A stretch of 20,706 nucleotides of DNA from an uncultured delta proteobacterium (GTDB lineage Bacteria; Desulfobacterota; Binatia; Bin18), in assembly GCA_963733195.1 (NCBI GenBank), contig CAVTCR010000087.1:1-20706 (forward strand). The letters run 5' to 3'. The notes under the pieces were generated by a model that saw nothing but the letters and a program-made list of their open reading frames with translations, searched no databases and was not told the origin of the DNA. Each line of letters opens with the position of its first letter. Position 1 is the stretch's first letter. The position numbers and the translations under genes are program-made. Positions 1,834 to 18,281 of this stretch are shown in pieces.

Positions 1834-1900
1834 TTGAACAAGCCTGAACCGCAATTTGAACGGTGTCAGCGTATCCTTGAACAGCGGCGTAATGCATCCT
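1834..1900 (+). promoter_or_regulatory. YTGAACC-box array A with -10-like hexamer, upstream of the TauD-family gene
   Basis: TGAAC at 1835, 1845, 1857, 1878 (spacing 10/12/21), then 12 nt, then CATCCT (1895-1900). Closely similar to 17998-18063. Confidence 0.75.
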
Positions 1901-2089
1901 TGCGGGTGTGAGGTGGGTTTTGCAGGCCGGCACCGGAATCCGGAGGTTCAGCGAGCGCACAACAGCAAAAGAAGGGGGAACCATGACGCCAGCAATCCAG
2001 AGGGAGCCGGAAACACCCTCCATGGAGCGCGCCGGAATCATCGACGACAAGCCCTATTGAGATTCACAACTTCAATAAAAGGAGTTCCT

Positions 2090-2914
2090 ATGGCTCTCGA
2101 ACTCGAACGACTCACTCGCGTCATCGGTAGCGAAATCCATGGAATCGACTTGAATCAAGTTGATGCGGCAATGGCGGCCAAGATTAAAATCGCTCTGAAC
2201 GAGCGCTTGGTGCTGGTCTTTCGCGACCAGTCGCTAACCCGCGAAACGCACAAGCGTTTCGCTCGCTTCTTCGGCACCGGCCAACTCCAGCGCCATGCGT
2301 TGTCGAGGTCCGGGGATCCAGAGATCCTCGATGTGAAGACCGACAAGGATTCGAAATTCACCGCTGGCGAAGGTTGGCACACCGACGTGTCTTGCGAGGC
2401 CGCCCCGATCAGTGCCTCGATGCTCTATCTCACTTGCATGCCGGAAGGCGGAGGCGGCGACACCTTGTTTGCAAACATGACCGAGGCATATAAACGGCTT
2501 TCGCAGCCCGTGAAGGCGTTCGTGCATACTCTCAAAGCGGTTCACGATGGTGCACTTCTCTGGAAGACGATCTACGGCATCGACCCGAAGCCCGGCACGA
2601 CTTATCCGCGCTATGAGCACCCGGTGGTGATCCGACATCCCGACACTAGTCGAGAAGTGCTGTTCGTGAATCGCGGCTTCACCACACATCTTACCGGGGT
2701 ATCTGCTCAGGAAAGTCGTTTTCTGCTCGAGATGCTCTTCAACCACATCGAGGCGTCACCGCAGATTCAATGCCGGGTGCAATGGCTGCCTAACACCATC
2801 GTGATGTGGGATAACGTTGCGACGCAGCATCACGCGGTCTGGGACTACTTCCCTCAGAGCCGCTATGCCGAACGCGTCTCGAGCCTCGGAGTCGAGCTAT
2901 CGGCTGCTGCATGA
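2090..2914 (+). CDS. TauD/TfdA family Fe(II)/2-oxoglutarate dioxygenase
   Basis: WHTDVS (HxD), GGDTLFAN, HPVVIRHP, WDNVATQHHA and a terminal R motif. AGGAG precedes ATG 2090, which is a better start than 1856. Confidence 0.93.
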   Translation: MALELERLTRVIGSEIHGIDLNQVDAAMAAKIKIALNERLVLVFRDQSLTRETHKRFARFFGTGQLQRHALSRSGDPEILDVKTDKDSKFTAGEGWHTDVSCEAAPISASMLYLTCMPEGGGGDTLFANMTEAYKRLSQPVKAFVHTLKAVHDGALLWKTIYGIDPKPGTTYPRYEHPVVIRHPDTSREVLFVNRGFTTHLTGVSAQESRFLLEMLFNHIEASPQIQCRVQWLPNTIVMWDNVATQHHAVWDYFPQSRYAERVSSLGVELSAAA

Positions 2915-3004
2915 CTAACATGTGGCAGTCCCTCAAATCTCCGTTGCCAGCAATGGCGTTAAACCGTCCGGTCCCGTCCATCAAAGTGAACCTGCCGGTG
3001 CATC

Positions 3005-3151
3005 CTACTGTATGTGTTCCGGTACAGTTCCAGGCGGCGAATACCTTATCACCAGTGGCTGCGAGGTGACATTCATCGCGGGATAGGCAAACCGTCTCTC
3101 CCGGGCTCTGTCGAGCATCTGGCAGTAGATTTCATAATTTGCCACCGGCAT
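3005..3151 (-). pseudogene. fbaA: Truncated class II fructose-bisphosphate aldolase (N-terminal ~30 aa only)
   Basis: AAGGAG RBS (3158-3163), then ATG 3151: MPVANYEIYCQMLDRARERRFAYPAMNVTS, matching the FbaA N-terminus (MP.A..E.Y..MLD.A....FAYPA.NVTS). Unrelated sequence follows, with a stop at 3005. Too short for the ORF track. Confidence 0.8.
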
Positions 3152-3206
3152 AACTTACTCCTTTCGTATCCGTCTCCATCGGCGCGCCGACCACGTCTGG
3201 CGAAAA

Positions 3207-3322
3207 AGACTACTCGATGAAGCGGTTCAAGGACGCCATGGCACCGGTTCAATTTTTCACGTCGTCGGTTCAGATTTCGCATTGCACGTTGACCTCTCGT
3301 TCAAGGGTCAGTAAAGGTTCAA
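3207..3322 (-). promoter_or_regulatory. YTGAACC-box array B with -10, upstream of the fbaA stub
   Basis: GTTCA on + at 3225, 3247, 3268, 3299, 3317 (22/21/31/18). On the minus strand the proximal box is followed by 12 nt and TAGTCT (3212-3207). Confidence 0.78.
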
Positions 3323-3437
3323 ACTGATCCGTTAGCGTAAGAAAACAACACCAACGTACACCCACAAGCTAAGATAGAGCTGCGCTCCGCACTCTTTCAC
3401 GGAAAGGTTAACAAACGGCTGTGATGAGGAGATTGCT

Positions 3438-4562
3438 ATGGATTTACAGGAAGCGCGCCAGGCATTGCTAAGGGAAACACCTCCCGCAAGGTCTGAGAGT
3501 ACTCCGCACGGACTGCACGAGCAGTTTTTCGAGAGAACCATTGCCCTGTTTCTGATTGCCGTACTGCTCTTCGCCTGCTTGCAAATCACTGCGCCATTCC
3601 TCCGGGCATTTACTTGGGCAATCATTATGGCGGTATCGACCTGGCCGCTTTTTTTACAGCTTCGTCAAAGGCTTGGTGAGAGAAAAAAACTGGCTGCCAC
3701 TGTGGTAGCAATGACTTTGGCGTTGGCGTTCCTGCTCCCTGGAGTGCTGTTGGTTACGTCCTTAACAGACAGTATCCAGTCAGTCGCCGCACTCGCAACC
3801 GACCTCACCACGCTGAAATTGCCGGACCTGCCCTCATGGGTCACGGGATTACCCGTGGTTGGAGAACGCATCGATAGTGTCTGGCAAAGTGTGAGAACGG
3901 ACATGAGTATGGAAAAACTCCGGCCGTACATCGTAACCGCAACCCAGTGGCTTTTGGCCCAAGGCGCTCAACTTGGACTGACTTTGCTCGAATTTGTGCT
4001 TGCCATAGTTTTTACTGGAATACTTTACGTTACGGGCGAAAGTCTCACTGCGCTGGTGAAGCAGTTCGCGACGCGGGTCGGTGGTGAGAGTAGTCTCAAT
4101 TTATTGCCGGTGGCCGTACAAACCATCCGGAGTGTAGCGTTCGGCGTGATCGGGACCGCGTTGATACAAGCACTATTAAGCGTCGGCAGTTTTGTCATTG
4201 CCGGAGTTCCAGGCGTTGCCGTACTCGGACTATTTTGTTTCGTGTTCGCGATGATGCAGATTGGCACAGCTCTCGTCTGGATTCCTATTGCCATCTGGCT
4301 CGCCTATCAGGACCAAAAGGGCTGGGCGACCTTTATCGTTATTTCAGGGCTTTCCATCAATATCATGGACAACTTCATCAAACCCTATCTCATCAGCCGG
4401 CAAGGTGCAGGCGTCCCAACGATCCTCATCTTCATTGGCGTCCTCGGCGGCCTTATCGCCTGGGGGTTTCTCGGCATTTTCCTGGGCGCGACGCTCCTCG
4501 CTATCGCTTATACCGTGCTGCGAAGTTGGCTCGATCAGGCGCCGTCCGTGGCGACGGACTGA
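3438..4562 (+). CDS. AI-2E family transporter (YdiK-like)
   Basis: 374 aa polytopic membrane protein with DNFIKPYLIS and GVLGGLIAWGFLGIFLGATLLA signatures. GAGGAG RBS. Confidence 0.92.
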   Translation: MDLQEARQALLRETPPARSESTPHGLHEQFFERTIALFLIAVLLFACLQITAPFLRAFTWAIIMAVSTWPLFLQLRQRLGERKKLAATVVAMTLALAFLLPGVLLVTSLTDSIQSVAALATDLTTLKLPDLPSWVTGLPVVGERIDSVWQSVRTDMSMEKLRPYIVTATQWLLAQGAQLGLTLLEFVLAIVFTGILYVTGESLTALVKQFATRVGGESSLNLLPVAVQTIRSVAFGVIGTALIQALLSVGSFVIAGVPGVAVLGLFCFVFAMMQIGTALVWIPIAIWLAYQDQKGWATFIVISGLSINIMDNFIKPYLISRQGAGVPTILIFIGVLGGLIAWGFLGIFLGATLLAIAYTVLRSWLDQAPSVATD

Positions 4563-4575
4563 ATATATGTTCGAT

Positions 4576-5340
4576 TCAGTTCTCTCTCCCATTTTCAGTT
4601 TGTTGACGTCCGATCCTCGTGGGCGGCGGCTTGGCCTTCCCTGTATGTAGCCCAAGTGCGGCGATCTGCCTTTGCAACTCTGCGAATATAACATCCGCCG
4701 GCTCGGTTGCGTCCACCCTCACGAACTCGTACTTCAGGGCCAGCTGATCCAAGGTCTGAATCACACGCGCTTGATAGCGCACGAAGCTGTCGTACATGTT
4801 GCCGCCGAACCGCATATCCATGCCACTCTCCCAGTAATCGAAGACGCCTCGCCCACGGATTACACGAGTAACCAAATCTTTCACTTGTGGGCGCAGATAG
4901 TACACCGCATGTGGAATCAAGGCGAAGTCAGTCCCGTGTTCGATCCAAGCAGAATCCTCGCCACGCGCAATCGCCCGTGCAATAATAGAATAAATATAAC
5001 GATCCGTGAGTACGACAAAGCCGGCGCGGAGCGCGGGAATGATTTCATTTTCCAGACGGTCCGCGAAATCGGTGACATAATAGAGCGTCATGGTCACCGG
5101 TCCCAGGGTGTTCCCTTCTTTGGCTTTTTTAATTCCCTTACCGGCCAGAGCCGAACGTGCCATGCCCGTATCGAGGACCGCATGCCCTTCCTGTTCCAGC
5201 CACTGCCGCAGACGCGTCACCTGCGTAGAGCGTCCGACCGCATCTGGCCCCTCGATGACGATCAAAGCACCGTGCAACTCCGCGCAGTCCACACCTGGCA
5301 GAGGAGTGTTATAGAATTGTAAGGGTCCCTTCGCTGCCAT
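4576..5340 (-). CDS. Thymidylate-kinase-like protein, second of a tandem pair (atypical P-loop)
   Basis: LIVIEGPDAVGRST P-loop (R in place of K), VVLTDRYIYS, DFADR. Confidence 0.88.
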   Translation of the reverse strand: MAAKGPLQFYNTPLPGVDCAELHGALIVIEGPDAVGRSTQVTRLRQWLEQEGHAVLDTGMARSALAGKGIKKAKEGNTLGPVTMTLYYVTDFADRLENEIIPALRAGFVVLTDRYIYSIIARAIARGEDSAWIEHGTDFALIPHAVYYLRPQVKDLVTRVIRGRGVFDYWESGMDMRFGGNMYDSFVRYQARVIQTLDQLALKYEFVRVDATEPADVIFAELQRQIAALGLHTGKAKPPPTRIGRQQTENGREN

Positions 5341-6061
5341 TCTTCCCTCGCTCGACGCTGTACAAGGCTCCAGTGTGTAAGCTCCTGCCTAACTTCTTCT
5401 GCACGATGTCTCGCATCTGTTGTTGCTGCTCTTCAATCGACAGCGTGGCGTCAATCACCTGAAAGCCCATCTCCTCCGTCATCGCTTCGTACTCGTCGAG
5501 TATCCGACCCTGGAAAAGACGAAAGCTCTCTTCGACCTCCCGACTGAGCCCGAGATCCATCCCAGCTTCGTAGTATTTGATCGCCTGGCGCCCGCCCAGA
5601 ATGCGGCCCAGCGCCACTTCCAAGGGCGTCTGGAAATAGAAACTCAGGTGCGGTCGCGGCGCAAAGCTGTAGAGCCGGCGGACCCACTGGCGATCGACGC
5701 CGCGCGCCACATCACGGGCAAAGGCCGTGTAGGCATAGCGATCGGCACACACGACCGCTCCAGCCTTCAACAGCGGCAGAATGTAGCGTTCCATCCGGTC
5801 AGCAAAATCCGTGGCGTGCAGTAAACTGAAGGTCGTGGGAGTGAGCATCTTCCTCTTTTTACCCCGTTGCATCGTCTCACGGACCAGGGGAGAGGAGTTC
5901 CATTCACTGAACGCGACCGCGATCGCCTGCGAACGTAGCCATTGGCTCAGGAGAGAGAGTTGAGTAGATTTTCCTGAGCCATCGATTCCTTCGACCACAA
6001 TCAGTTTCCCCTTGAAGCGATTCGGTGCGAACAAGGCGGCTGTCTGTTGATACTCCTGCAT
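5309..6061 (-). CDS. tmk: Thymidylate-kinase (dTMP kinase)-like protein, first of a tandem pair
   Basis: LIVVEGIDGSGKST P-loop, DFADR, VCADRYAYT. Overlaps the partner gene by 32 nt. Confidence 0.9.
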   Translation of the reverse strand: MQEYQQTAALFAPNRFKGKLIVVEGIDGSGKSTQLSLLSQWLRSQAIAVAFSEWNSSPLVRETMQRGKKRKMLTPTTFSLLHATDFADRMERYILPLLKAGAVVCADRYAYTAFARDVARGVDRQWVRRLYSFAPRPHLSFYFQTPLEVALGRILGGRQAIKYYEAGMDLGLSREVEESFRLFQGRILDEYEAMTEEMGFQVIDATLSIEEQQQQMRDIVQKKLGRSLHTGALYSVERGKNGSEGTLTIL

Positions 6062-6148
6062 AAGGGTTGTTCGTGCTTTAACGAGTTCAGGGTAAATAGA
6101 AAGAGGGGCGTTCTCCTGAAATAGGTGTAATCCTCGCTGTCGGCCAGC

Positions 6149-6204
6149 AATCTACATTCAAGCACTGGTTCAACACGAGTGACAAACGGTTCAATTCTTT
6201 TCAG
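6149..6204 (-). promoter_or_regulatory. YTGAACC-box array C with -10, upstream of the tmk-like pair
   Basis: GTTCA on + at 6168 and 6189 (21), degenerate TTTCA at 6199. On the minus strand the proximal box is followed by 13 nt and TAGATT (6154-6149). Confidence 0.62.
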
Positions 6205-6325
6205 ATTTCACTTCTGAACTTCCCTAGCAGGTGAAAGCTCCTGCAATTGCTTTCCGAGGAATTGTCATGTGCCTGCGGCGCGCCCTTAAGGATGAAAACG
6301 AAACCGGAATCTTGTCTTTCTTGAT

Positions 6326-6360
6326 CCCCCTCACCCGGCCCTCTCCCATCCGGGAGAGGG
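6326..6360. repeat. BoxC-like extragenic palindromic repeat
   Basis: CCCCCTCACCCGGCCCTCTCCC-ATCC-GGGAGAGGG: pyrimidine tail plus a perfect 9-bp stem, the form of a widespread intergenic repeat. Confidence 0.7.
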
Positions 6361-6522
6361 AAATTTCAGGGGAATGACGAAAACGGGAGGACGTAGGATA
6401 TAACCAGCAGTTAAGGATTCAGCCTAGCAGCATTCCGACTTGATCTATCACTATCTGTCTCATCAAGTTCAGATTTTTACACTTTTACTCTGATCCTGTC
6501 TTCGTTTCTCTATCTCGCAGTC

Positions 6523-7386
6523 TTACTGGGGCGAATTGACTACGATATAGGTCACACTGCCGCCACTGTAGGAAGGTTGATACCAGGTTGACCCGCATTG
6601 ATAGTAGGACATCCCGTTCACCGACATTGAAGTACACGAACTCGACTGGGCGCTGAAGGCGGCGGCAGTCATCACGGACCCGATCGCCATGCCTGCTAGC
6701 ACTCCCCCCGCCGCGTATCCTCCGTAGTGGTATCCTCCTCCCCATTCGCCATGGTAGTCCTCCCCGTATTCTTGCCAGTCTTCGCGGCTGTTCTTCCCGT
6801 ATTCCTGTCGGTCCTCGCGCGCATTATTCCCGTAATCCTGCCAGTCTTCCCGGTTTTGATCTTGCTGGGTATTACGGGTGGATTGCCGCTCGCTGGCAGC
6901 GGTTTGGCGGTTCTGCTGATTTTGGGTCGAAGTGCCTTGCCTCTGACTGGCAGCGGCTTGACGGTTCTGCTGATTCTGGGTCGAAGTGCCTTGCCTCTGA
7001 CCGGCAGACCCTTGCCGACTCTGTTGCATTTGGGATCGATTGGCCGACATTTGACTGGCAGACCCTTGCCGACTCTGTTGTCTTTGCGAAGCGCCCCCTT
7101 GCCAACTGCCACTGCTGGCGGCGCCACCACGAGAATAATTTGCACCGCCCGAACGATTGCCACCGAACGAGCCCGTACTCGCTGCACCACTCCGGGAGAA
7201 ATTCCCGCCGCCGCCACCACCTCGACCCCCGCCGCCACCACTAAAACTCCGGCCACCCCCGCCACCACCTCGACCCCCGCCGCCACCACCTCGACCTCCC
7301 CGTGCTTCGACCTGCGCTGCGATAAAGATGCCCATCAACAATAGTGCCATCCATACGGTGTGACGTATCCACGTTTTCGTGCTCAT
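6523..7386 (-). CDS. Exported Gly/Gln/Ser-rich low-complexity protein with a Tyr/Cys-containing C-terminal domain (DUF6515-like)
   Basis: AAGGAG (7394-7399) before ATG 7386. Signal peptide ending VEA, then RGG/G runs, 18-aa Q-rich repeats, REDWQ[DE]Y repeats, a hydrophobic GVLAGMAIG segment and YYQCGSTWYQP. Confidence 0.82.
   Translation of the reverse strand: MSTKTWIRHTVWMALLLMGIFIAAQVEARGGRGGGGGGRGGGGGGRSFSGGGGGRGGGGGGNFSRSGAASTGSFGGNRSGGANYSRGGAASSGSWQGGASQRQQSRQGSASQMSANRSQMQQSRQGSAGQRQGTSTQNQQNRQAAASQRQGTSTQNQQNRQTAASERQSTRNTQQDQNREDWQDYGNNAREDRQEYGKNSREDWQEYGEDYHGEWGGGYHYGGYAAGGVLAGMAIGSVMTAAAFSAQSSSCTSMSVNGMSYYQCGSTWYQPSYSGGSVTYIVVNSPQ
6893..7080. repeat. 54-bp tandem coding repeats (two pairs)
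   Basis: CTGGCAGCGG...GTGCCTTGCCTCTGA at 6893 and 6947; GGCAGACCCTTGCCGACTCTGTTG at 7003 and 7057. Confidence 0.85.
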
Positions 7387-7493
7387 GGCTGTACTCCTTA
7401 TACTCATGCCCAGGCTCTGCCTGGGCATGCTGTGTTTTTGCAGATCTGCCTCACGTCACTCGTTCCTAGCCTCTACCTGGGAGAGAGCGATTT

Positions 7494-8312
7494 CTATTCT
7501 TTCATTTTTGCGTCAGGATCCATGCCGGCCACAAACGCGATCCGCACCGCCCCCTCGGCGGGAGTGAACACGAAGAGCGACTCCGGTGTGTCCGGCGTAA
7601 AGTTCCAGTCGTGAAAGTTCGCCCAGAATTGCGGCTCGCCATCCTCCAATTTATAGGTGACCACGAGCCGCTCCGGTACGGGCTTCTCTCCCTTTGCTAT
7701 CCATAGCTGCATATCAACCAGGTCGTTGCGCAACGCGATATGATCGCAGGGCGTTCCATCGATTGTGGCCTCTTCCACCCAATAGGCCGCACTGACCTTG
7801 TCTTTTATGGTCTTGGGCAAATTGTTGGAGAAGAGTTCGGCCATCGGCAAGGGCATCTGCAGGTCGCGGGTAAAGTAAGTAAACGCAGCATCAAGGTCGC
7901 CGGATTTCTGCGCGGTCGCATACACTTTCTCATTCAGACCAAAGAAAGCGAGCTGTTTGCCATCGAACCGAAAACCGCGCTTGGTCCCATCCCGGTCGGT
8001 AATATCGACGGCAATCCGATCCGGGCGCTGCACGGTGATCTTGCGGGTCGCACCAAACTCTAGCTTTTGCCCCCAGACCTGGTCGACATCGTAGCCGATG
8101 TCCGCCGTGACACTATAACGTTGAGCTTTCGCCAGATAATCTGCCATCCGCGTGAGAGGGGCCATCGCTTTTGCGTCGATTGTCGACACGGTGGCCTTAG
8201 TTTCCTGGGCGTGCGCTGGCGTATTGCCCAACACGAGTGCGCACATCAGGGCAGGCACACAGCGCCACGTCACACGGTTCACTCTCCCGCTCCACATAAT
8301 GACTCTATACAT
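7494..8312 (-). CDS. DUF2092 domain-containing periplasmic protein
   Basis: Signal peptide (AHA-Q), GQKLEFG...VQRPDR, CDHIALRNDLVDMQLWI, PQFWANFHDWN. AAGGAG precedes ATG 8312 (alternative start 8339). Confidence 0.88.
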   Translation of the reverse strand: MYRVIMWSGRVNRVTWRCVPALMCALVLGNTPAHAQETKATVSTIDAKAMAPLTRMADYLAKAQRYSVTADIGYDVDQVWGQKLEFGATRKITVQRPDRIAVDITDRDGTKRGFRFDGKQLAFFGLNEKVYATAQKSGDLDAAFTYFTRDLQMPLPMAELFSNNLPKTIKDKVSAAYWVEEATIDGTPCDHIALRNDLVDMQLWIAKGEKPVPERLVVTYKLEDGEPQFWANFHDWNFTPDTPESLFVFTPAEGAVRIAFVAGMDPDAKMKE

Positions 8313-8360
8313 AGCAAATCTCCTTGCTGATCGCACCATCGGTCAATTCCTCACTTGCTC

Positions 8361-8783
8361 TCACTTGACACCGACATCTTTCATCGCAGTCTTGCAGCGC
8401 GTACTTACATCCTTCTCGTTCTTCTTCAGACACGCCGCCAACCGCCCTCCACCCGCTTCCACTGAGGCGCAGTGCTTCTCTAGATCCGCTTCACATTCGC
8501 TGGCAACGTAGGTCAAAGTCGCAATAGCGTGCTCAAGCTGCGCCGAGGCGTCGTACAAAGCATACTCGCACCGGCTCGAAAGCTTATCCTGGTACGCGTA
8601 CAAGCAGGCAAGAACCCTCCCCTCACCCGGAGTGACCTCCTTACAGAACGAGTCGAGTTCCTTCTTACAGCCGTCCTTGACAGACGCGATTAAATCCTGC
8701 TGCGCCCAGGATGTGTTGAATGCACCGGGCAGCATGAAAAGCACCGCTACAGTCAACAGAAACTTTACCACTCGTCTCATCAT
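8361..8783 (-). CDS. Exported cysteine-rich-repeat protein (GLG1/Cys_rich_FGFR-like repeats)
   Basis: Signal peptide (SWA-Q) and two C-x6-C...GxGR..ACL...S.RC repeats. GAGGAGG RBS. Confidence 0.88.
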   Translation of the reverse strand: MMRRVVKFLLTVAVLFMLPGAFNTSWAQQDLIASVKDGCKKELDSFCKEVTPGEGRVLACLYAYQDKLSSRCEYALYDASAQLEHAIATLTYVASECEADLEKHCASVEAGGGRLAACLKKNEKDVSTRCKTAMKDVGVK

Positions 8784-8872
8784 CTATTCCTCCTCTAGGA
8801 AAAACTTGAATTCTCTTCGCATAGCTGTGGAGAATAATCAGTCAAGCCCACCGCTGCTGAACGGTGTCAGTG

Positions 8873-8938
8873 ACCATACAAGATGCAGGGGGTCAGGTAC
8901 ATACTGACACGGTTCAAGTTGTGGTTCAGACGGTGCAA
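8873..8938 (-). promoter_or_regulatory. YTGAACC-box array D with -10, upstream of the Cys-rich/DUF2092/Gly-rich genes
   Basis: On +: GGTCA 8891, GTTCA 8912, GTTCA 8924, GTGCA 8933 (21/12/9, the same spacing as array G). On the minus strand the proximal box is followed by 12 nt and TATGGT (8878-8873). Confidence 0.75.
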
Positions 8939-8955
8939 TTTTCTCAATGAACCTT

Positions 8956-9612: not shown

Positions 9613-9634
9613 ACAAATGCCCGTCCCCGGCCAT

Positions 9635-9835
9635 TTACTCTTGCCGGTCGGGCTCGCTCAGCACCTTTACCATGAAAGCCAGTAACTCTTCGAGCGAATG
9701 AAAGCGTGCGGCTTGGTAAGACACCAAATGCTCTACCCGGCCCTGCCACTGTCCCTGTTCGACCTTCGCGTCGGCATGAACCTGCACGACAAACGCACGC
9801 TTGGCTGGGAAAGAGACTCGTTGCTTTGATGACAT
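9635..9835 (-). CDS. Small hypothetical protein (66 aa), divergent from the wHTH-STAND regulator
   Basis: AGGAAAG RBS. Compact beta/alpha sequence AFVVQ...GRVEHLVS...F.SLEELLAFM. First gene behind array E. Confidence 0.8.
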   Translation of the reverse strand: MSSKQRVSFPAKRAFVVQVHADAKVEQGQWQGRVEHLVSYQAARFHSLEELLAFMVKVLSEPDRQE

Positions 9836-9895
9836 CTATACTTTCCTACTTGTTGACGGGAAGTTCCTTACAGGCATTGTCGAGCTTGCCAGAAG

Positions 9896-9983
9896 ACAGT
9901 ACGTTTGTTGCCGGTTCAAATATAGAGGATAAGTTGCGTTTTCGGTTCAATTTCGGTTCAAATTTAAGCCGAAAGTGGTTCAA
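9896..9983 (-). promoter_or_regulatory. YTGAACC-box array E with -10, in the divergent region between the small gene and the regulator
   Basis: GGTTCAA four times (GTTCA at 9914, 9945, 9956, 9978; 31/11/22). On the minus strand the proximal box is followed by 12 nt and TACTGT (9901-9896). The distal box abuts regulator ATG 9984. Confidence 0.8.
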
Positions 9984-12900
9984 ATGACCCAAGAAAACAA
10001 TAGAGGCGCAACACTGTCTGAGTCAGAGTTGCACTTTGGGCCGTTTCGCTTAGAGGCAGCTAAGCAGCTGTGGCGAGAAGACCAGCTCATTAACCTGCGG
10101 CGGCAGTCTCTGGCCATGCTGCGGTATTTAGCCGAGCGACCACACCAACTGGTCACGAAAGAGGAGTTGCTCGAACAGTTATGGCCGGGGATTTATGTGT
10201 CGTCCACTGTGGTCAAGGTGTGCGTGCGAGAAATTCGGCATGCTCTTGGGGATGTGGCCACAAAGCCGCAGTTCGTCGAGACGGTGGGAGTGCAGGGATA
10301 TCGGTTCATCCAAGCAAGCTACCTCCAGTTCTCAGTTCCAGTTGTCAGTTCCGCGTTTAGAGGCAGGAGGCGAGTTCCTCAACTGCAACTGATGAGAACT
10401 GGCAACTGCCAACCGGCTTACAGCCACTGACAACTGACAACCGGCGACTGACAACTCACTTTGTCGGGCGGGAGTACGAGTCGGCGCAGTTGCAGGCGTG
10501 GTACGCGCGCGTGCAGCAAGGCGAGCGACATATCATTTTCGTCTCTGGCGAGGCCGGCATTGGCAAGACAGCGCTGGTGGAGCGCTTTCTTGCGCAAGCG
10601 CAAGCGAGGGGGACCGTACGCATCGGGCGCGGACACTGTATCGAGCAGTATGAACACGGGGAAGCCTACCTGCCTGTGCTGCAAGCGTTGCAGCAGTTGT
10701 GTCGTGCCCCCGACGGCGACCAGGTGGTAGCCATACTACGCCGTTACGCGCCCCTCTGGCTTATCCAGCTCTCGGGGGTGATCGAGGGAGACGAACTGGA
10801 AAAGTTACAACGTCAGGTCCAGGGCAGCAGTCCCCAGCGGATGTTACGTGAATTCGCTGAAGCCATCGAAGTGTTGGCGACTGAGACCCCGGTGATCTTG
10901 TTTCTCGAAGACCTGCAGTGGAGTGATGCCGCGACCCTGGAGTTGCTGGAGTATCTGGCACAGCGCCAGGAGCGCGCCCGGCTGCTGGTGCTCGGCTCCT
11001 ATCGACCAGCGGATACGGTGCTGAGCAGGCATCCCCTGCGTCGAGTGGCGCAGAGGCTGATTGGACGTGGGCAGTGTCAAGAGCTGGCGCTGGAATTGTT
11101 CACCCAAGCGGAAGTTAAAGCCTATCTGACCCAACGACTGGCCGGGAGTCCGGTCGTGGACGTCTTGGGACTGGTGATTCACCGCCGTACGGAGGGGAAT
11201 GCTCTGTTTGTGATGCACTTTGTGGACTATCTGCTCCAGCAGGGCTTGCTGGTGGAGGCAGATGATCGTTGGGAGTTGCGGGTGGAGCCGGCTACGCTCG
11301 AGGATCTCATCCCTGACCACGTGCAGCAACTGATTACCAGACAGATTGAAGGGTTGAGCAGAGAGGTGCAGCAGCTCTTGGAAATGGCCAGTGTGGTGGG
11401 GATGAGCTTTACGGCCAGCGAGGTGGCGGCGGTCATCAATCGCCCGCTGGAAGCAACGGAGGCGGTGTATGATGAGCTGGCTAACCAGGGGCGATTCCTA
11501 GAGGTCCAAGGGCTGGCTGAATGGCCGGATGGGTCCATCACTGTTCGCTATCATTTTCGCCATGCCTTGTGTCAGCACGTGCTGTATCACCGCATCGGAC
11601 TGGCGCAACGGGTGCGCTGGCATCGGCAGCTCGGCGAGCACTTCGCTAAGATGTACGGGGAGCATACGCAAGAGATTGCCGGCGAGTTAGCCTTCCATTT
11701 TGAGCGTGGGCGGGAGTACCGGCGCGCCATCCTCTTCTGGCAGCAGGCAGGGGAGCATGCGCTCCAGCAGAACGCGTACCAGAAAGCGCTTGAGCATGGC
11801 CAGGCTGGGATAACACTCCTCACGCAACTTCCAGCCACAGCGGAACGCGGGCAATTGGAACTCAAGTTACGTCAGATTGTGAGTAGTAGCGCTGGCGGTG
11901 ATCCGGGGGTTCACAGATGACGAACTGGAAGACAACCTCCGCCGCGCCCAGCAGCTCTGTCGAGAGCTGGAGGATGATGCCACGCTTGTGTCAGTGGTAA
12001 TAAGCTTAGCTCGACTGCAATTGTATCGTGCCAATCGCCCAGCAACTGGAAGAGCTGGTACGACAGGAAGAGGATTTGGCCGAGCGCCTCCATGATCCGC
12101 TGCTGCTGGTTCAGCTCCATACACAATTGGTGGCTAGCGAGACATTCCGGGGGCGACATACTCGTGCCGAAGAACATTATCAACAAATCCTTAGGCACTA
12201 TAACCCGCAAGCTCACCGGTCTTCTCCTGCTTTCTTGGGTCAAGACCCATTCGTAGGAGCTCTCGGCGCCTCCGGTCTGAACCTCAGCCTATCGGGGTGG
12301 CTCGATCAGGGCTGGAGCCGTCTCGCGCAGGGACTCGCACTTGCGGAAGAGTATGCGCAGTATGTACTTTTGGCCAACGGGCTGTTGCTCGCCGTGCCGG
12401 TGAAGTCCCTTCGCGGCGAATATGAAGAGGCATGGCAGCTCGCCAAAAAAATGGACGCGCTCTCACGTGAGCATGATTTTTCACTGTATGTGCACCTTGG
12501 AGTCCTGCTCCAAGGCGGTATGGCAGTGCAATGTGGCGCGCTAGAGGAAGGGATTGCGGCAATTACCGGTGGGCTCTCACAGTATCGCGCCACAGGAGCC
12601 CAACTCTTCATACCCTATTTTTTGTCGTTACTCGCGGATGGCTATCGGCAACAGGGGAAGGTCGCAGAGGCACTGCAGGTGGTGAGTGAAGCCCTTAGCT
12701 TGACGACAACGAATTTCGACGTCTTCTGGGAGGCGGAGCTGTATCGGCAAAAAGGCGAGCTGACGCTCGCCCAGTCTAGTGTTCAGCGTTTAGAGTCGGG
12801 AAAGAAAATCAAAAATCAAAAGTCAAAAGTCAAAAGTCAAAAATTTCTGACCCCCAATCCCCGACCCCTAACCCCCAAGGAGAAGCGGAGGCGTGTTTTC

Positions 12901-13102
12901 TGCAAGCCATCGAGATCGCCCGCCGGCAGGAGGCGAAGCTGTTGGAGCTGCGGGCGGTAATGAGCTTGGCGCGGCTGTGGCACCAGCAGGGAAAGAAGAA
13001 GAGGCTCGACAGAGGCTGGCCGAGATCTACAACTGGTTCACTGAAGGGTTGGAGACGAAAGACTTACAAGAGGCCAAAGCGTTGCTGGCGGAGTTGGCAT
13101 AA
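9984..13102 (+). CDS. Transcriptional regulator: OmpR/CadC-type winged-helix DBD + STAND (AAA_16-like) ATPase + TPR-like sensor; at least 5 frameshifts (pseudogene or sequencing errors)
   Basis: FGPFRL...LVTKEELLEQLWP...IRHALGD...VETVGVQGYRFI (Trans_reg_C); FVGRE, Walker A GEAGIGKT, Walker B LFLEDLQWSD, RTEGNALF; C-terminal ELRAVMSLARLW...YNWFTEG...DLQEAKALL. Frame changes near 10310-10430, 11888, 12040, 12800-12876 and 12995. Confidence 0.9.
10325..10455. repeat. Inverted heptamer tandem arrays in the DBD-ATPase linker
   Basis: About 4 YCAGTTS units at 10325-10351 face about 9 degenerate RCAACTG units at 10380-10455. Confidence 0.8.
12804..12877. repeat. Heptamer tandem arrays inserted in the regulator's C-terminal region
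   Basis: About 5 AAAARTC units at 12804-12843, then GACCCCC AATCCCC GACCCCT AACCCCC at 12849-12876. Encodes KIKNQKSKVKSQK...TPNPRPLTP. Confidence 0.85.
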
Positions 13103-13150
13103 GGATCAGAAATTTAATAATTTCCCAACCTCATGGGAAGCCAAAGTCCG

Positions 13151-13181
13151 TGTCATTGCGAGGAGCTGTAAGCGACGAAGA
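13151..13181. repeat. Partial GTCATTGCGAG-type REP-like element
   Basis: TGTCATTGCGAGGAGCTGTAAGCGACGAAG matches the left half of the GTCATTGCGAGGAGC...CGACGAAGCAATC repeat family as I recall it. The right arm is absent. Confidence 0.5.
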
Positions 13182-13283
13182 ATTGGGCATTGGCTTGCGG
13201 ATTGACACTCAGTATCTGTTGGATGGCATAGGGAGAGGAGAAGTAGAAGACGGATCCTTCCCCAATCGCTTCTTGCCAGGCTG

Positions 13284-14296
13284 CTATGTGGATGTGAAGT
13301 CACGAATACACGAGGTCTCCTATTTTTTTATGACTTCTTTATCTCCTGACCAAAGAGAGACTGGCTGCTATACGTGGCACGGCACTCAGGCCGTCACACT
13401 GACTTGGGAGGCGCCCCTCTCAAAGGCATCCGGCCCCGGGCTCTCTGTCTCAAGGCGCGAACCGTTAGGAGTGTTTCTCTCCTGCTTCTGCTTGTCGTCG
13501 AGTCGTTCCCTGGGGCACGGTCTCCTCTTGGGTCAACGGAGCCGAACCAACTCTTTTTCTGACCTCATAAGAGCGTTGTTGCATCAAGACCACCGAAAGC
13601 CGCACGCTGAGTTTGCGCGCCACTGCCACAATAGCCACCCTCGCAGCCACCGGGCGCGGATGGGTTTGACAAACCGAGCGATAGAATTCCCGCAACTCCC
13701 CGTCTTGGCGGATCGCCGACCACGCGGCTTGAATGAGTTTGCTTCTGAGCCGTGGGTCACCGCTGTGGGTGATCGAGCCCCGGTCGGTTTTCTCCCCGGT
13801 GGAGTGCTCGGTGGGCACCAACCCCAGAAAGCCGGCCACCTGGCGGATGTTTTTCAGCTCGCGCCAATCTCCGATCCGCGCCAGCAACTGGCTCCCCACA
13901 ATCCAGCCGATCCCACTGATGCTGGTCAGATACTTGAGACACTGCGCCAGCTCGGGATCGTGCTGGCAAAAACGACGGATCTCTCGGGTGGTCTTCACCA
14001 CCTGCTTCTCACTAAACTCCAAACTGTCCAGCAACTGGTCGAGTTTGAAAAGGACCGTCGGGCGCGCAGGGCAGGTGCCGCAGTTGCTTTTTGACCAGCC
14101 CGGACCACTGACTACCAGGAGGCGCGGGAGGAAACTCGAGCCCTTCCAACAACAGCAGCGATTTAATCCGTTGCTTCATCCCCACCATCTCGCTGACAAA
14201 GGTATCGCGCAGCTGGGTCAGGTGGCGCAGCTCTCGGTACGGGACCGAGGGCACGTGAATGCTTTTGAGTTGCCCTCCTCGCAGTGTCTCCGAGAG
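13284..14296 (-). mobile_element. 5'-truncated IS110-family element (transposase remnant 13465-14296 plus 3' non-coding end)
   Basis: LRGGQLKSIHVP...RELRHLTQLRD; LTSISGIG...GFLGLVPTEHSTG...GSITHSGDPRLRSKLIQAAW...AIVAVARKL. The N-terminal DEDD domain is missing and there is a frameshift near 14050-14062. The element end near 13284 is approximate. Confidence 0.88.
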
Positions 14297-14424
14297 TGGG
14301 CTGACTATTAAAGTCAACATATCCATTAAGGACCCGAAACCATCACCATTGTTCGGCCGGGACCACGGTCCTTCTACTGGTCCAGCGTGATCTTGGTGAT
14401 TTTTCTCTGTCTTCTGCCCTGCTA

Positions 14425-15228
14425 CTACTGATCCGTTCCGGCGGGTTCATGCTGAGGCGGGGTAAACTCTTCCCCTGGTACCTGTGCATCTGCTTGCTCA
14501 CACCTCTGCCAGGCTTTTCTTCCTTCCGCCGCATCACGCTTGGTGATCTCTTCCGCTTGCGCTTTGGCTTTGGCAGCGTCCCCACCAACCAAGGGAGGCG
14601 CCTGCAGGTAATATTCCAGCAGGCCGAACCGAGCCTCGAGATTGTCCGGGTTTAGCGCTACGGCTGTTTCGAGGTGTTTTTTTACCTTGCGAGCTAAGAA
14701 AAATGCGTCACCTTCCGCATGCTGCGCTTGCTCTCCATACGTGCGTCCCAGCCAGAGATGATAGTCTGAATTACCACTGTCCAGTTGGACAGCTTTCTCA
14801 AACCAGGTCGCCGCTTGCTCATATCGCTTGCTCTCGAAAGCGAGGCGTCCGAGGTAATAAACCCCAGAAGGGTCAGCAGGGTACTGGCGGACAAAATCTT
14901 CAAAGAACGGCTGCGCCGCGGCGAACTGCCTGCTCTCAAAGAGATTCACTCCAGTTGTGATGTCTTCACTGGCCTGTACCGTAGAGCGGTTTTCAATTGG
15001 ATTGACCTCGGTTCTTCCCCTCACCCCTACTTGCTGTTCTCGTACTGCCCTCTCTCCTTCGACAAGCTCCGGACGGGCTTTAGCAGGGAGGGGGAGAGGA
15101 TGAGGGTCGTAAGCTGGGGAACTGGGGTACACGCAACCGCAAATTGCTGTCAGAGAGACCAAACCAAGAAAGGTGATAACTTCCCACAGCCGGCGGATAG
15201 AATTGTTGACCAGCCCTGGTGGTCGCAC
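14425..15228 (-). CDS. Tetratricopeptide-repeat protein, probable lipoprotein
   Basis: Hydrophobic segment ending ICG-C; TPR helices (YYLGRLAF...FEKAVQLDSGNSDYHLWLG; ALNPDNLEARFGL). AAGGA precedes GTG 15228; start uncertain. Confidence 0.82.
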   Translation of the reverse strand: MRPPGLVNNSIRRLWEVITFLGLVSLTAICGCVYPSSPAYDPHPLPLPAKARPELVEGERAVREQQVGVRGRTEVNPIENRSTVQASEDITTGVNLFESRQFAAAQPFFEDFVRQYPADPSGVYYLGRLAFESKRYEQAATWFEKAVQLDSGNSDYHLWLGRTYGEQAQHAEGDAFFLARKVKKHLETAVALNPDNLEARFGLLEYYLQAPPLVGGDAAKAKAQAEEITKRDAAEGRKAWQRCEQADAQVPGEEFTPPQHEPAGTDQ

Positions 15229-15318
15229 GTTTGAGATCCTTACAGTTGTCAATAGTGAATGAAGGCCATTATTTCTTCCCTTCGCCGTCCAAGCGCATGC
15301 ACGCGCCAAAACGGCCTG

Positions 15319-15899
15319 CTATTCGCCCGGCGTGAGCTTGGTGATTTTTGAACCCTGCAAACCAAGCCCTGCCATCAGTCCCTTCTGGCTGAAGATAAAA
15401 GCGTAGACACCTTTTCGCAGCGTCGTCGAACTCATCGACTTCCCAAAGCCCTTGTCCAAGACGACCACGCTGGGCCCGGTCCCAATCTCCCATCCCCTGC
15501 TTTTTTCAAGATACGCTAGTGACGCATCATCCATGAACAGCAAGACGTAGCCGAAGGATTGCACACCGGCCTGTAAGCCATACGAGGCGGCGAGGGATCG
15601 ATAGTACCCGACCGTCTTGCCCCCTTTGCGGCGAGAACGCCATCACCATATTGCCCACCGACGATAAAGCCGGCCTTGACGATATTGGGAAAGACGAGGA
15701 CGCCCTTAGCCTGCTTCGCCAAGTTTAACGCGCCAGGCGTGGAGGCATACAACGTTCGTAAGGCCTCCGTGGCGTTGCGATCAATCTCGCTCGCACTCGC
15801 CGCCAGCACCACCCGTGCGTTCAGGGTGATCATCGTCACCGTCGCCAGCACCAGCGCAATCGCCAGCCTTCGATACTCCCTCGCTGCTCTTTTCTTCAT
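15319..15899 (-). CDS. YSC84/SYLF lipid-binding domain exported protein; one frameshift
   Basis: AAGGAG then ATG 15899. Signal peptide, AKGVLVFPNIVKAGFIVGGQYGDGVL / GKTVGYY...ASYGLQAGVQSFG...QKGLMAGLGLQGSKIT. Frame change near 15630. Confidence 0.9.
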
Positions 15900-15979
15900 A
15901 TCCACTCTCCTTTGTCGTGGAACAGGCTCGGCGGGGTCAGGGGACCCACGCCGAATAAATCCCCAAAATAGTTTCTGCA

Positions 15980-16055
15980 AAACTACTCGATCACAAGGTT
16001 CAGATACATCGTAACCTCGGTTCAATTATGGTTCAAAGCGGTTCAAATTGATTCA
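15980..16055 (-). promoter_or_regulatory. YTGAACC-box array F with -10, upstream of the YSC84 and TPR genes
   Basis: GTTCA on + at 15998, 16020, 16031, 16041 and ATTCA at 16051 (22/11/10/10). On the minus strand the proximal box is followed by 12 nt and TAGTTT (15985-15980). Confidence 0.8.
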
Positions 16056-16199
16056 CTACCTCAGAAACGAGTAGCAAAGTGTGATATGAACCGACGCAGC
16101 AGGAACATGGTATCAATCGAGACTGTAAGTTATGGTAGTCCCGATTTTTACGGATGAATAGTCGGCGTTGGCTGTTGCCTGGCCGAGCGTGTTCAGTAG

Positions 16200-16372
16200 T
16201 GTTACGTCCGGCTGATGTTTACGAATCTTGGTAGCGGTCCTGCCCACAATCTCAATGGTGGTTTGACCTTCCTGCTCAATGACAATTTGCAACTCGACAT
16301 CAATGGGGGGTTGGAATTAACGGACGTGCGGACGATTATTTCCTCGGCATTGGGCTGGCGTTAAGATTTTGA
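16200..16372 (+). pseudogene. C-terminal remnant of an outer-membrane beta-barrel ('transporter'/MetA-phenol-degradation-like family)
   Basis: HNLNGGLTFLLNDNLQLDINGG / GINGRADDYFLGIGLALRF-stop, with a terminal Phe. Needs one extra G in the run at 16305-16310. In-frame stop at 16197 and no 5' part. Confidence 0.65.
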
Positions 16373-16423
16373 GGTACCCCATTATTGAGACCTCAGTAGT
16401 GATGCCGTTTAGGAGCGTCGGAT

Positions 16424-17656
16424 ATGAGTAGAAAGCCACAACCTATTACATTCCAGGCGTCAACGTCCCAAAACAATATGCTCCGAGAATCGCCGGACTT
16501 CTCGCTGGTTCTGGGCGGGCCGCTTTTCCAGCTTCTGTGCCGGTCACATCTGTCCGGCGATACGCTGGAGCTCATGCGCCGACGCATCATCATCATTCCG
16601 TTGCTCGCCTGGCTGCCGCTCTTGGTGCTTTCGGCGCTGGAAGGACGGGCGCTGGGCGGGAACGTGGCCGTTCCCTTCCTGCTGGACGTGGAAGCGCATG
16701 CCCGCTTTCTGGTGGCGCTGCCGCTGTTGATCGTTGCGGAACTGGTGGTGCACCAGCGCATGCGCTTCGTGGTGCGGCAATTCCTGGAGCGCAATCTGAT
16801 TCCCGCGAGCGCCCTGACACGGTTCGAGGCCGCCATCGCGTCAGCCTCGCGGCTGCGCAACTCAGTGCTCGTCGAGGTACTGCTGATCGCTTTCGTCTAT
16901 GTCGTCGGTGTCCTGATTATTTGGCGCCAGTACATGGTGCTCGCCACGGCCACGTGGTATGCGGTGCCGACCGTCGAGGGTTTGCAGCTCTCGCTCACTG
17001 GAGTGTGGTATGGCTACGTGAGTCTACCGATCTACCAGTTCCTGTTGGTGCGCTGGTATTTTCGCATGTTTATCTGGGCGCGCTTTCTCTGGCAGGTGTC
17101 ACGCCTCGACTTGAGTCTGGTTCCTACCCATCCGGACCGTGTCGGCGGTCTGGGATTTCTGACCAACACGGTCTACGCCTTCATGCCGCTGGCGGTGGCG
17201 CACGGCGCAATGCTTGCCGGACCGCTCGCTAATCGCATTTTCTACCTTGGGGCTGCACTGCCTGAGTTCAAGCTCGAAATCGCCGTCCTCGTCGTCTTTC
17301 TGGTGTGCGTGGTGCTCGGCCCGCTCTTGGTGTTCGCGCCGCAGCTTGCTGAGGCGAAGCGGACGGGCAATCGCGAGTATGGCACACTGGCCCAGCGGTA
17401 CGTACGCGAGTTCGATGCCAAGTGGCTGCGCGGCGGTGCGCCTGCCGATGAGACGTTGGTGGGGAGCGGTGACATTCAGTCCCTCGCAGATCTGAGCAAT
17501 AGTTTTGAGGTGGTGCGGACTATGCGTATCGCGCCGGTAACGACTGAAGCCCTCCTTCGTCTCGTGGCCGCGACCCTTGCGCCGCTCGTGCCGCTGGCGC
17601 TCACCATGATGTCGCTGGAAGAACTGCTGAAACGGCTGTTGGGTATAGTGTTCTAG
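16424..17656 (+). CDS. Conserved hypothetical polytopic membrane protein (410 aa)
   Basis: Long intact ORF with many TM helices, [25 protein letters not shown] and GDIQSLADL motifs. AGGAG RBS. Confidence 0.85.
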
Positions 17657-17790
17657 GAAATCCAGGAAAATGCGTCCTGGGAATTACACGCAAGCCCAAG
17701 CCGCGAGCGGGTCTCCTGACCCGCACCCACAGAGTGGTGCGGTCCAAAGACCGACGCCGAGCAAATGCTCAGGAACAACAGCGGGAGTCC

Positions 17791-17880
17791 AGCCATGGAG
17801 TCCCGCTGATCCTGGCCGGAGATGAAGTGCTGAGAACGCAGCGCGGGAACAACAACGGCTACTGTCAGGATAACCGGATC
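17791..17880 (+). pseudogene. glgX: Internal fragment of a glycogen debranching enzyme
   Basis: [28 protein letters not shown] matches the GlgX signature SQGVP....GDE..RTQ.GNNNAYCQDN. The flanks are unrelated. Confidence 0.8.
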
Positions 17881-17997
17881 TGTCAGAACTCGCGCCAAAT
17901 TTCGATCTTACTACAAGATATAGGGAGCTTTCATTCGTACAGCGCACTACATATAGTTATAGACTGTCTTTTTGGCGCGAAACCTGACAGATCAAAA

Positions 17998-18063
17998 CTG
18001 AACCATCTGAACCGTAATTTGAACCATGTCAGCGTGTATTTGAACCCCGACGTAATGTATACC
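17998..18063 (+). promoter_or_regulatory. YTGAACC-box array G with -10-like hexamer, upstream of the 18282 gene
   Basis: TGAACC at 17999, 18008, 18020, 18041 (9/12/21), then 12 nt after TGAAC, then TATACC (18058-18063). Confidence 0.78.
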
Positions 18064-18281
18064 CATAACTTGTTGAGAGAGTTTCGCAAGTTCGCGCAAG
18101 AATTCGTCAGAGTAGAGGAAAATCAAATGGCCTTTTCCACACGATGTCGCGCGCCTCCTGTCGCCCATTTCAGGGGTAGGGGTTTTTTAAGCTGCAAGGA
18201 GAATCTTATTAGTCGCTCTTAGTTTGGTTACTTTAGGCGAAAACCGATCCTTGGCTAACGGGGATCAGAAAGGAAACGAGA

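Follow-up and report, generated by a model that had tools for sequence, protein, structure and literature searches.

Phased TGAAC repeat arrays on a Binatia contig as probable operator-promoters of a winged-helix/STAND ATPase/TPR regulator clade

What reads the phased repeats of a five-letter box, TGAAC, that lie ahead of gene after gene on one contig of an uncultured delta proteobacterium (Desulfobacterota; Binatia; Bin18)? The stretch we analyzed, here called the window, is the whole of contig CAVTCR010000087.1 (C87; 20,706 bp) of assembly GCA_963733195.1, a draft genome of 6.95 Mb in 87 contigs with a GC content of 0.54; its other contigs are likewise written with C and a number, and other genomes with G and a number. 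From the letters of the window alone, it had been predicted that seven arrays of this box (consensus YTGAACC) mark promoters under a common activator. We consider it likely that a single clade of regulators reads all seven arrays as operator-promoters; these regulators join an N-terminal winged helix to a STAND ATPase and a tetratricopeptide repeat (TPR) sensor. The most probable reader would be the regulator encoded within the window itself, at 9984 to ~13070. A recount gave the 25 exact boxes in seven regions that the original prediction had reported (4, 5, 2, 2, 4, 4, and 4 in arrays 1 to 7). The arrays are laid out as follows, each read from its distal boxes to the proximal box and on to a -10-like hexamer.

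Array 1, 1835..1900, plus strand: boxes at 1835, 1845, 1857, and 1878; 12 nt; CATCCT at 1895-1900
Array 2, 3207..3321, minus strand: boxes at 3317-3321, 3299-3303, 3268-3272, 3247-3251, and 3225-3229; 12 nt; TAGTCT at 3212-3207
Array 3, 6149..6193, minus strand: exact boxes at 6189-6193 and 6168-6172 (gap 21); 13 nt; TAGATT at 6154-6149
Array 4, 8873..8937, minus strand: TGCAC at 8937-8933, exact boxes at 8928-8924 and 8916-8912, TGACC at 8895-8891 (gaps 9, 12, and 21)
Array 4, promoter part, 8878-8873, minus strand: TATGGT, 12 nt past the degenerate proximal TGACC
Array 5, 9896..9982, minus strand: boxes at 9982-9978, 9960-9956, 9949-9945, and 9918-9914; 12 nt; TACTGT at 9901-9896
Array 6, 15980..16045, minus strand: boxes at 16045-16041, 16035-16031, 16024-16020, and 16002-15998; 12 nt; TAGTTT at 15985-15980
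Array 7, 17999..18063, plus strand: boxes at 17999, 18008, 18020, and 18041; 12 nt; TATACC at 18058-18063

The enrichment over background that the prediction called for is present. TGAAC occurs 63 times on the two strands of the window, compared with 40.8 +/- 6.4 times in 100 dinucleotide shuffles, none of which attained 63. The boxes also cluster: five arrays in the window have at least three same-strand boxes at gaps of no more than 35 bp, while 300 first-order Markov simulations of the window gave a mean of 0.03 such clusters and a maximum of 1. By our own gene map, which is based on open reading frames (ORFs) and Pfam matches, the non-coding 19% of the window holds 36 of the 63 boxes.

Start-to-start gaps are 10, 12, and 21 bp in array 1; 18, 31, 21, and 22 bp in array 2; and 21 bp in array 3. 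Between exact boxes they are 12 bp in array 4; 22, 11, and 31 bp in array 5; 10, 11, and 22 bp in array 6; and 9, 12, and 21 bp in array 7. The spacing classes first proposed (9-12, 21-22, and 31 bp) thus hold for 17 of the 18 gaps and fail for one, the 18-bp gap of array 2. The hexamers of arrays 1 to 7 (CATCCT, TAGTCT, TAGATT, TATGGT, TACTGT, TAGTTT, and TATACC) were found where the prediction had put them, 12 nt past the proximal box, or 13 nt in array 3 alone. Comparison with a relative added two degenerate boxes to array 4, TGACC as its proximal box and the distal TGCAC. With these additions, the span from the first to the proximal box is 42-43 bp in arrays 1, 4, 6, and 7.

All seven arrays also face the downstream ORF, as had been claimed, but this is informative in only four cases: arrays 1, 3, 4, and 7 are located between co-directional genes, whereas the divergent gaps that hold arrays 2, 5, and 6 offer a gene either way. 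The poor -35 region noted at the outset was borne out by a scan of the window with the sigma-70 -35/-10 consensus, in which no match coincided with any of the seven arrays. A semi-conserved CTAT(C)/GTAT stands in the 6-7 nt directly before the proximal box (e.g., at 9919-9926 and 16003-16009), which is the place expected of a -35 hexamer (17 nt from the -10), and is unlike TTGACA; it may be an extension of the proximal site or a sigma contact. By eye, the seven sequences have nothing in common at 15-16 nt that would fit an ECF-type CGT or TCT -10 element, whereas TAnnnT at 12 nt is common to them.

The same build recurs across the genome. A search with TGAAC-N4-7-TGAAC-N24-28-TGAAC, a pattern chosen on the three boxes alone, found 15 sites, compared with ~0.3 expected by chance (our own arithmetic from the frequency of TGAAC). 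TAnnnT stands exactly 12 nt past the proximal box at 11 of the 15, compared with 0.74% of 14,401 TGAAC sites. One layout is shared by 14 of these sites, namely four in the window, six on C62, and the ones on C28, C32, C65, and C18: three distal boxes 10-12 bp apart, a step of 19-22 bp (31 bp where one box is missing), and the proximal box, for a first-to-last span of 42-43 bp. At the promoter end, a semi-conserved CTAT(C) precedes the proximal box, followed by 12 nt and GTAnnnT. A weight matrix built from the pattern sites retrieved window arrays 2, 3, and 4 and further TGAAC arrays on C62, C8, C70, and C76, as well as the same build with other words, namely CGAACC (C12), CTAACC (C8), and TTAACG (C76). 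Outside the window there are ~13 TGAAC arrays, on at least eight other contigs. The genome also has tandem 7-bp TGAAC repeats (TGAACTT/TGAACTC, beside TGGACCT-type units) whose build has no relation to that of the promoter arrays and which inflate simple cluster counts (e.g., C70:103819-103844, C81:119843-119868, C84:57696-57721, and C13:9027-9045).

Which protein could read such arrays? The prediction favored a winged helix of the OmpR/PhoB or SARP type, and a gene divergent from array 5 encodes one.

Candidate regulator, 9984..~13070, plus strand: divergent from array 5, between arrays 5 and 6
OmpR/PhoB-type winged helix, 10083-10307, plus strand: Trans_reg_C
AAA_16 STAND ATPase, 10490-11920, plus strand: Walker A GEAGIGKT, Walker B LEDLQWSD
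TPR repeats, 12028-12960, plus strand: TPR and MalT-like TPR matches

The most distal box of array 5 abuts the start codon of this gene, ATG 9984. Trans_reg_C (PF00486) matches window positions 9975-10430 with 61.4 bits (cut-off 26.2), and AAA_16 matches with 87.8 bits (cut-off 32.6) with both Walker motifs intact; an AAA_16 domain with Walker A and B motifs and then a repeat sensor places the protein among the STAND NTPases. An intact orthologue in G003, a 1096-residue ORF, has the same order of domains: a Trans_reg_C match of 59.4 bits, with the winged helix from about residue 35 (counted from ATG 1000; gene at L004:1000-4110), AAA_16 starting 46 residues past it, and then a long helical/TPR tail. 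In these regulators the winged helix begins at about residue 25-36. Neither the window pieces nor the G003 orthologue has a Response_reg domain in Pfam, which sets the regulator apart from two-component regulators, and NCBIfam response-regulator models all score far under their cut-offs. Nor did we find BTAD in the window pieces or the intact 1096-residue ORF, so that the OmpR/PhoB part of the prediction stands and the SARP part does not; the NCBIfam AfsR model matches the TPR stretch only (27.8 bits; cut-off 1430). The GerE/LuxR helix-turn-helix of MalT/LAL regulators is likewise absent from the window pieces and the intact orthologue. PDB sequence matches of the winged helix include the CadC, ToxR, PhoB, KdpE, and OmpR domains, and neither AfsR nor EmbR was found there at E <= 0.001.

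Although colinear with paralogues of 940-1090 residues, the window regulator runs through frames 3, 2, 3, 1, 3, and 2 in the assembly, a total of five jumps, some of them at homopolymers (GGGGG at 11905; CCCCC at 12851 and 12872). We read these breaks as assembly errors because rpoB (C71:137391-139092) and several aminoacyl-tRNA synthetase genes (e.g., C31:21728-23334 and C70:111478-113035) are broken alike. An esterase-like gene at 203-1801 of the window is similarly spread over four overlapping frames. Frameshifts throughout the assembly thus probably arose as indels in sequencing or assembly, and the lengths of ORFs are unreliable. We regard a pseudogene as the less probable reading of the regulator, since essential genes are frame-broken too.

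The family to which this regulator belongs is large. At E <= 1e-20 there are at least 5984 homologues, labeled in databases as 'AAA family ATPase' or 'winged helix protein/predicted ATPase', and homologues that are 45-49% identical carry the source names 'Candidatus Binatia bacterium' and 'Deltaproteobacteria bacterium'. A search of genome contigs for related loci gave one distant locus, in a Chloroflexota MAG at 28% identity, and matches in a protein atlas came from mixed phyla. Among sequencing runs, a search listed metagenomes, several of them labeled soil or rhizosphere, with at most 0.10 of the sequence words, and no RNA run. Some close homologues (P0185, P0195, P0199, and P0203) have a class 3 adenylate cyclase domain (PF00211) in addition to Trans_reg_C, and the ATPase-TPR body is akin to the 'TOMM system kinase/cyclase fusion protein' (an NCBIfam TIGR03903 match). 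From these sequences, one sensor module appears to be wired to different outputs among the homologues.

The link between regulators of this kind and repeat arrays is not confined to TGAAC. The genome has 48 Trans_reg_C matches, of which 38 could be evaluated and have the domain at the N terminus. At least three phased exact 5-mer repeats lie within 475 bp upstream of 27 of these 38 regulators, compared with 16.6% of 5000 random segments and 484 of 2989 long-ORF upstream regions (16.2%). At least four such repeats lie upstream of 8 of the 38, compared with 0.9% of the random segments and 36 of the 2989 upstream regions. The box word differs by regulator while the build is constant: the words include CACCG, AACGC, TTTCG, ATCCC, TCCCA, TCAAC, TAACC, and CTGAA, with distal boxes 11-12 bp apart, and several of the other-word modules (on C57, C76, C74, and C8) have a visible proximal box followed by TAnnnT. 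On C65 (133171-141048), three tandem, near-identical winged-helix regulators each have the same CTCAG/TCTGA repeat pattern upstream, which looks like a recent local amplification of the module. In a tree of 36 winged-helix domains, all six TGAAC-adjacent regulators fall in one clade of 10 (SH-aLRT 94), which also includes regulators with CGAACC and CTGAAk boxes. Members of this clade have in common YV(S/T)xT(V/A) at the presumed start of the recognition helix, which, by eye, other clades do not have.

A third component recurs with the regulators and the arrays. The first gene behind array 5 encodes a conserved protein of 66 amino acids, for which we coin the label sm66. Its family has 18 distinct loci in this genome, 15 of which are within 350 bp of a Trans_reg_C match on the opposite strand, and a module-specific repeat array lies upstream of 11 of the 17 loci that were scanned. 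Copies of the sm66 type also adjoin regulators in G013, G003, G016, G010, G014, and G001. What recurs is thus a three-part unit made up of regulator, array, and small protein. On C48 (29549-31145), two modules of a regulator and a small protein stand head-to-head, with the small proteins and the upstream DNA near-identical; no exact 5-mer array was detected there.

Homologues of sm66 number 161 clusters in a 90%-identity collection (E <= 0.001), with 70-100% identity among the 120 matches listed; among 50%-identity cluster representatives there are 2907 at E <= 0.001 and 1172 at <= 1e-10. Among 25 family members, Pfam gave nothing better than E 0.04, and no NCBIfam model matches sm66. The protein is thus a real conserved gene product and represents a small-protein family without a Pfam or NCBIfam entry. 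An AlphaFold2 model (mean pLDDT, a per-residue confidence score, 82) has the order strand-strand-strand-helix, and Foldseek found no match to it in the PDB at E <= 0.001 (best E 0.67). A complex prediction for residues 140-1036 of the G003 orthologue with its 63-residue partner scored 0.06, which is no evidence either way. The layout of regulator, array, and small protein recalls AfsR of Streptomyces, whose best-known target, afsS, encodes a small protein.

Comparison with other genomes shows which parts of the arrays are held constant. Most larger genomes of this bacterial family have 20-48 strong matches to the regulator family. The closest relatives of the window regulator in other genera are in G013 (77% identity), G003 (61%), and G016 (50%), and a divergent TGAAC array is kept beside the regulator in all three. 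A four-way alignment of the array 5 position has no change in any box or in the hexamer's GTA, but does in the spacers. Behind its orthologue of the ion-channel gene, G013 also has an orthologue of array 4. Identity between these two arrays is ~93% over a block that opens with the first box and closes ~7 nt past the hexamer; beyond it the sequences diverge as far as the ribosome-binding site. This conserved block is the footprint that would be expected of a promoter-operator with a start ~7 nt past the hexamer, where the original prediction had placed it. Exact matches to the three-box pattern number 15 in this genome, 10 in G013, 2 in G003, and 0-3 in each of the remaining 28 genomes. TGAAC specificity is thus patchy among relatives.

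How might such an array work? The following scheme is our inference, and this applies to binding, to the stoichiometry of the oligomer, to the choice of activation over repression, to the start sites, and to which paralogue goes with which array. A trigger at the TPR sensor, together with bound ATP, would make the STAND module oligomerize; the N-terminal winged helices would then line up along the direct repeats in head-to-tail order, each on its own TGAAC(C) box. A start ~7 nt past the hexamer would put the proximal box at about -29 to -25, with the distal boxes between about -72 and -44. The proximal protomer, 12 nt before a TAnnnT -10, could then substitute for the missing -35 contact, in a manner akin to the class-II or 'sigma adaptation' type of activation by AfsR/SARP or PhoB, and the three distal protomers would give cooperativity. 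On array 5, this complex would switch on the gene for the 66-residue protein and would probably also repress the regulator's own gene, because the distal box there abuts the regulator's start codon.

Three known systems come close to this scheme. PhoB binds ~7-bp direct repeats (the pho box) head-to-tail, with a period of ~11 bp, in the place of the -35. The window regulator has a winged helix of the same Trans_reg_C fold family, and its presumed sites are head-to-tail repeats where a -35 would be expected. Unlike PhoB, it has no receiver domain and hence no phosphorylation switch, the input being the STAND ATPase and TPR sensor, and its presumed arrays extend further, the proximal box being set off by a gap of two or three turns. 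MalT and other LAL regulators are STAND ATPases with a repeat sensor that oligomerize and bind several same-sense boxes cooperatively at weak promoters. The likeness lies in the ATPase, the sensor, and the several same-sense boxes, and the difference in the DNA-binding domain: a C-terminal LuxR-type helix-turn-helix there and an N-terminal OmpR-type winged helix here.

The closest parallel is with AfsR and the large SARPs of Streptomyces, as described in PMC10936776. That source gives an N-terminal OmpR-type domain, a STAND domain, and a TPR sensor, and same-sense repeats one or two helical turns apart that abut the -10 at promoters with a poor -35. In SARP targets, by the same account, the direct repeats are set 11 or 22 bp apart and 8 bp separate the 3' repeat from the -10; the afs box covers -19 to -40, overlapping the -35, and AfsR has NOD and TPR domains (PMC10936776). 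In our arrays the gaps of 9-12, 19-22, and 31 bp fit the repeat spacing given there, and the distance from the end of the proximal box to the hexamer is 12 nt when the box is taken as TGAAC and 11 nt when it is taken as YTGAACC, as against the 8 bp given there. Other differences are that four boxes (3+1) extend over 43 bp here rather than two 11-bp repeats; that there is no BTAD/BTA, with ~46 residues between the winged helix and AAA_16; and that the host is not an actinomycete, has dozens of paralogues per genome, and pairs the regulator with a partner protein. SARP membership therefore fails, and 'works like AfsR' is the best analogy.

Could the same proteins act as repressors instead? In that case the oligomer would sit over the core promoter and block RNA polymerase until released by a signal. 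The proximal box overlies part of the core-promoter spacer, between -35 and -10, and the abutment of the distal box of array 5 on the regulator's start codon is an arrangement typical of autorepression. However, 11 of 15 independently chosen arrays keep exactly the same spacing between box and -10, and a repressor needs no such register. A fixed register without a -35-like hexamer is instead, going by PMC10936776, the signature of activators of the SARP/AfsR type that replace the -35. We consider repression unlikely.

It is highly unlikely, in our estimate, that the arrays are read by a classical two-component response regulator of the OmpR/PhoB family rather than by a protein of the STAND type. 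At least 15 box words each stand beside a different regulator with an N-terminal winged helix, in a genome with only a handful of classical response regulators, and the TGAAC array stays beside the STAND regulator across four genera. The attraction of this alternative is that phased direct repeats abutting a -10 are the classical PhoB/OmpR pattern. In addition, 6 of 44 tabulated Trans_reg_C matches start at residue 104 or later, the C-terminal position typical of that class, but at least two of the six (on C25 and C83) are N-terminal-type regulators with over-extended ORFs.

That TGAAC serves an alternative, ECF-like sigma factor as its -35-type element, or that the arrays are copies of a promoter cassette with no dedicated regulator, seems scarcely likely at all: GAAC-type -35 elements are typical of ECF promoters, and arrays 1, 4, and 7 share inter-box sequence (TGTCAGCGT, CGTAATG) as cassette copies would, but a sigma factor reads one -35 some 16-17 nt from the -10 rather than four same-sense boxes with the nearest 12 nt off, arrays 2, 3, 5, and 6 and those of C62 have only the boxes and the -10 in common, the box word changes with the neighboring regulator, and between genera the boxes are conserved and the spacers are not.

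Several observations nevertheless weigh against reading the arrays as activator sites of this one clade. The hexamers of arrays 1 and 7 (CATCCT and TATACC) each lack one of the two invariant ends of TAnnnT, array 2 has only a 48-residue gene remnant downstream, and arrays outside the window are spaced 12, 12, and 19 bp and so are not strictly one turn per step. A proximal site at -29 to -25 fits repression as well as activation. The reversed pattern, run as a control, has 6 matches in this genome and exceeds the forward count in G018 and G008, so that pattern counts alone are noisy, and two genomes of the same genus have 0 and 1 exact matches. No TGAAC array is obvious upstream of a paralogue on C1 that shares 71% identity with the window regulator. 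The grouping of the TGAAC arrays on the tree could be explained by co-duplication alone, and the tree is weaker evidence than its counts suggest because gene duplication copies the adjacent array too. If the frame breaks are real, the regulator would be a pseudogene and its arrays orphaned or served by a paralogue. Finally, with ~10 paralogues in the TGAAC-like clade, cross-talk is possible.

For the last of these reasons, no single activator can be assigned. That one activator controls much of this 20-kb region was an inference of the original prediction, and it has to be widened to a clade of about ten proteins and to the ~13 further arrays on other contigs. Otherwise its interpretation appears, from what the sequences support, to be right in kind and is extended here, with binding and activation the parts that we infer. 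The original prediction knew of no description of the motif or regulon, and among the papers listed in our literature searches we likewise found none of the TGAAC motif, of this architecture outside the SARPs, or of the small protein.

If operator-promoters read by the winged-helix/STAND clade, what would the arrays control? The genes downstream of each array in the window are as follows.

TauD-family dioxygenase, ORF 1856-2914, plus strand: after array 1; Pfam match from residue 84, likely start ATG 2090
48-residue ORF, 3151-3005, minus strand: after array 2; aldolase gene remnant
Two tandem thymidylate-kinase-like genes, 6061-5309 and 5340-4576, minus strand: after array 3
Cys-rich secreted-type protein, 8783-8361, minus strand: after array 4
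DUF2092 gene, 8339-7494, minus strand: after the Cys-rich gene and followed by a 301-residue ORF
sm66, 66-residue protein, 9635..9835, minus strand: first gene after array 5
Ion-channel gene, 9612-8956, minus strand: behind sm66
129-residue ORF, 15905-15516, minus strand: after array 6
TPR protein, 15309-14425, minus strand: after the 129-residue ORF and array 6
137-residue protein with a signal-peptide-like N terminus, 18282-18695, plus strand: after array 7

Many of the predicted targets, in the window and on C62, are envelope or membrane proteins; ORFs downstream of several C62 arrays encode an OmpA/glycine-zipper protein, a PrsW-type protease, a DUF1207 protein, and an aquaporin-type channel. 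The thymidylate-kinase-like pair (Pfam Thymidylate_kin, 84.5 and 60.9 bits) is unusual cargo for an inducible promoter. Residues 1-33 of the 48-residue ORF match the N terminus of class II fructose-bisphosphate aldolase (PDB 4a21/3ekl, E 5e-4), after which the sequence diverges, and it has no paralogue in the genome. This remnant is convergent with the TauD gene, and the five-box array 2 still precedes it. Long 5' leaders (~180-210 nt) are predicted at 1901-2089 before the TauD gene and at 18064-18281 before the gene for the 137-residue protein; at gathering thresholds, Rfam has no match in the window, including these leaders.

A large and vaguely labeled protein family gains a testable regulatory code, and a small-protein family tied to these regulators is uncovered. 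If our reading holds, AfsR-like logic, in which the -35 contact is replaced by an OmpR-type domain mounted on a STAND switch, would operate outside the actinomycetes and without BTAD. The many paralogous combinations of a winged helix with its box word in a single genome offer a natural data set from which to read how OmpR-type domains recognize DNA, and a possible source of orthogonal promoter/activator parts. It is conceivable, if doubtful, that this genome, from an uncultured soil lineage, holds dozens of orthogonal, self-contained switches, each made up of a regulator, a private operator word in the 3+1 geometry, and, as first target, a private 66-residue partner of a new family. The partner would be more than a target and would feed back on the TPR/NOD part as a ligand, antagonist, or co-activator. 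Feedback of the small protein on its own regulator would account for its diversification in parallel with the regulators. If this is true, the system would be a feedback module of a new, protein-coded kind, and its operator/activator pairs a natural library of orthogonal parts.

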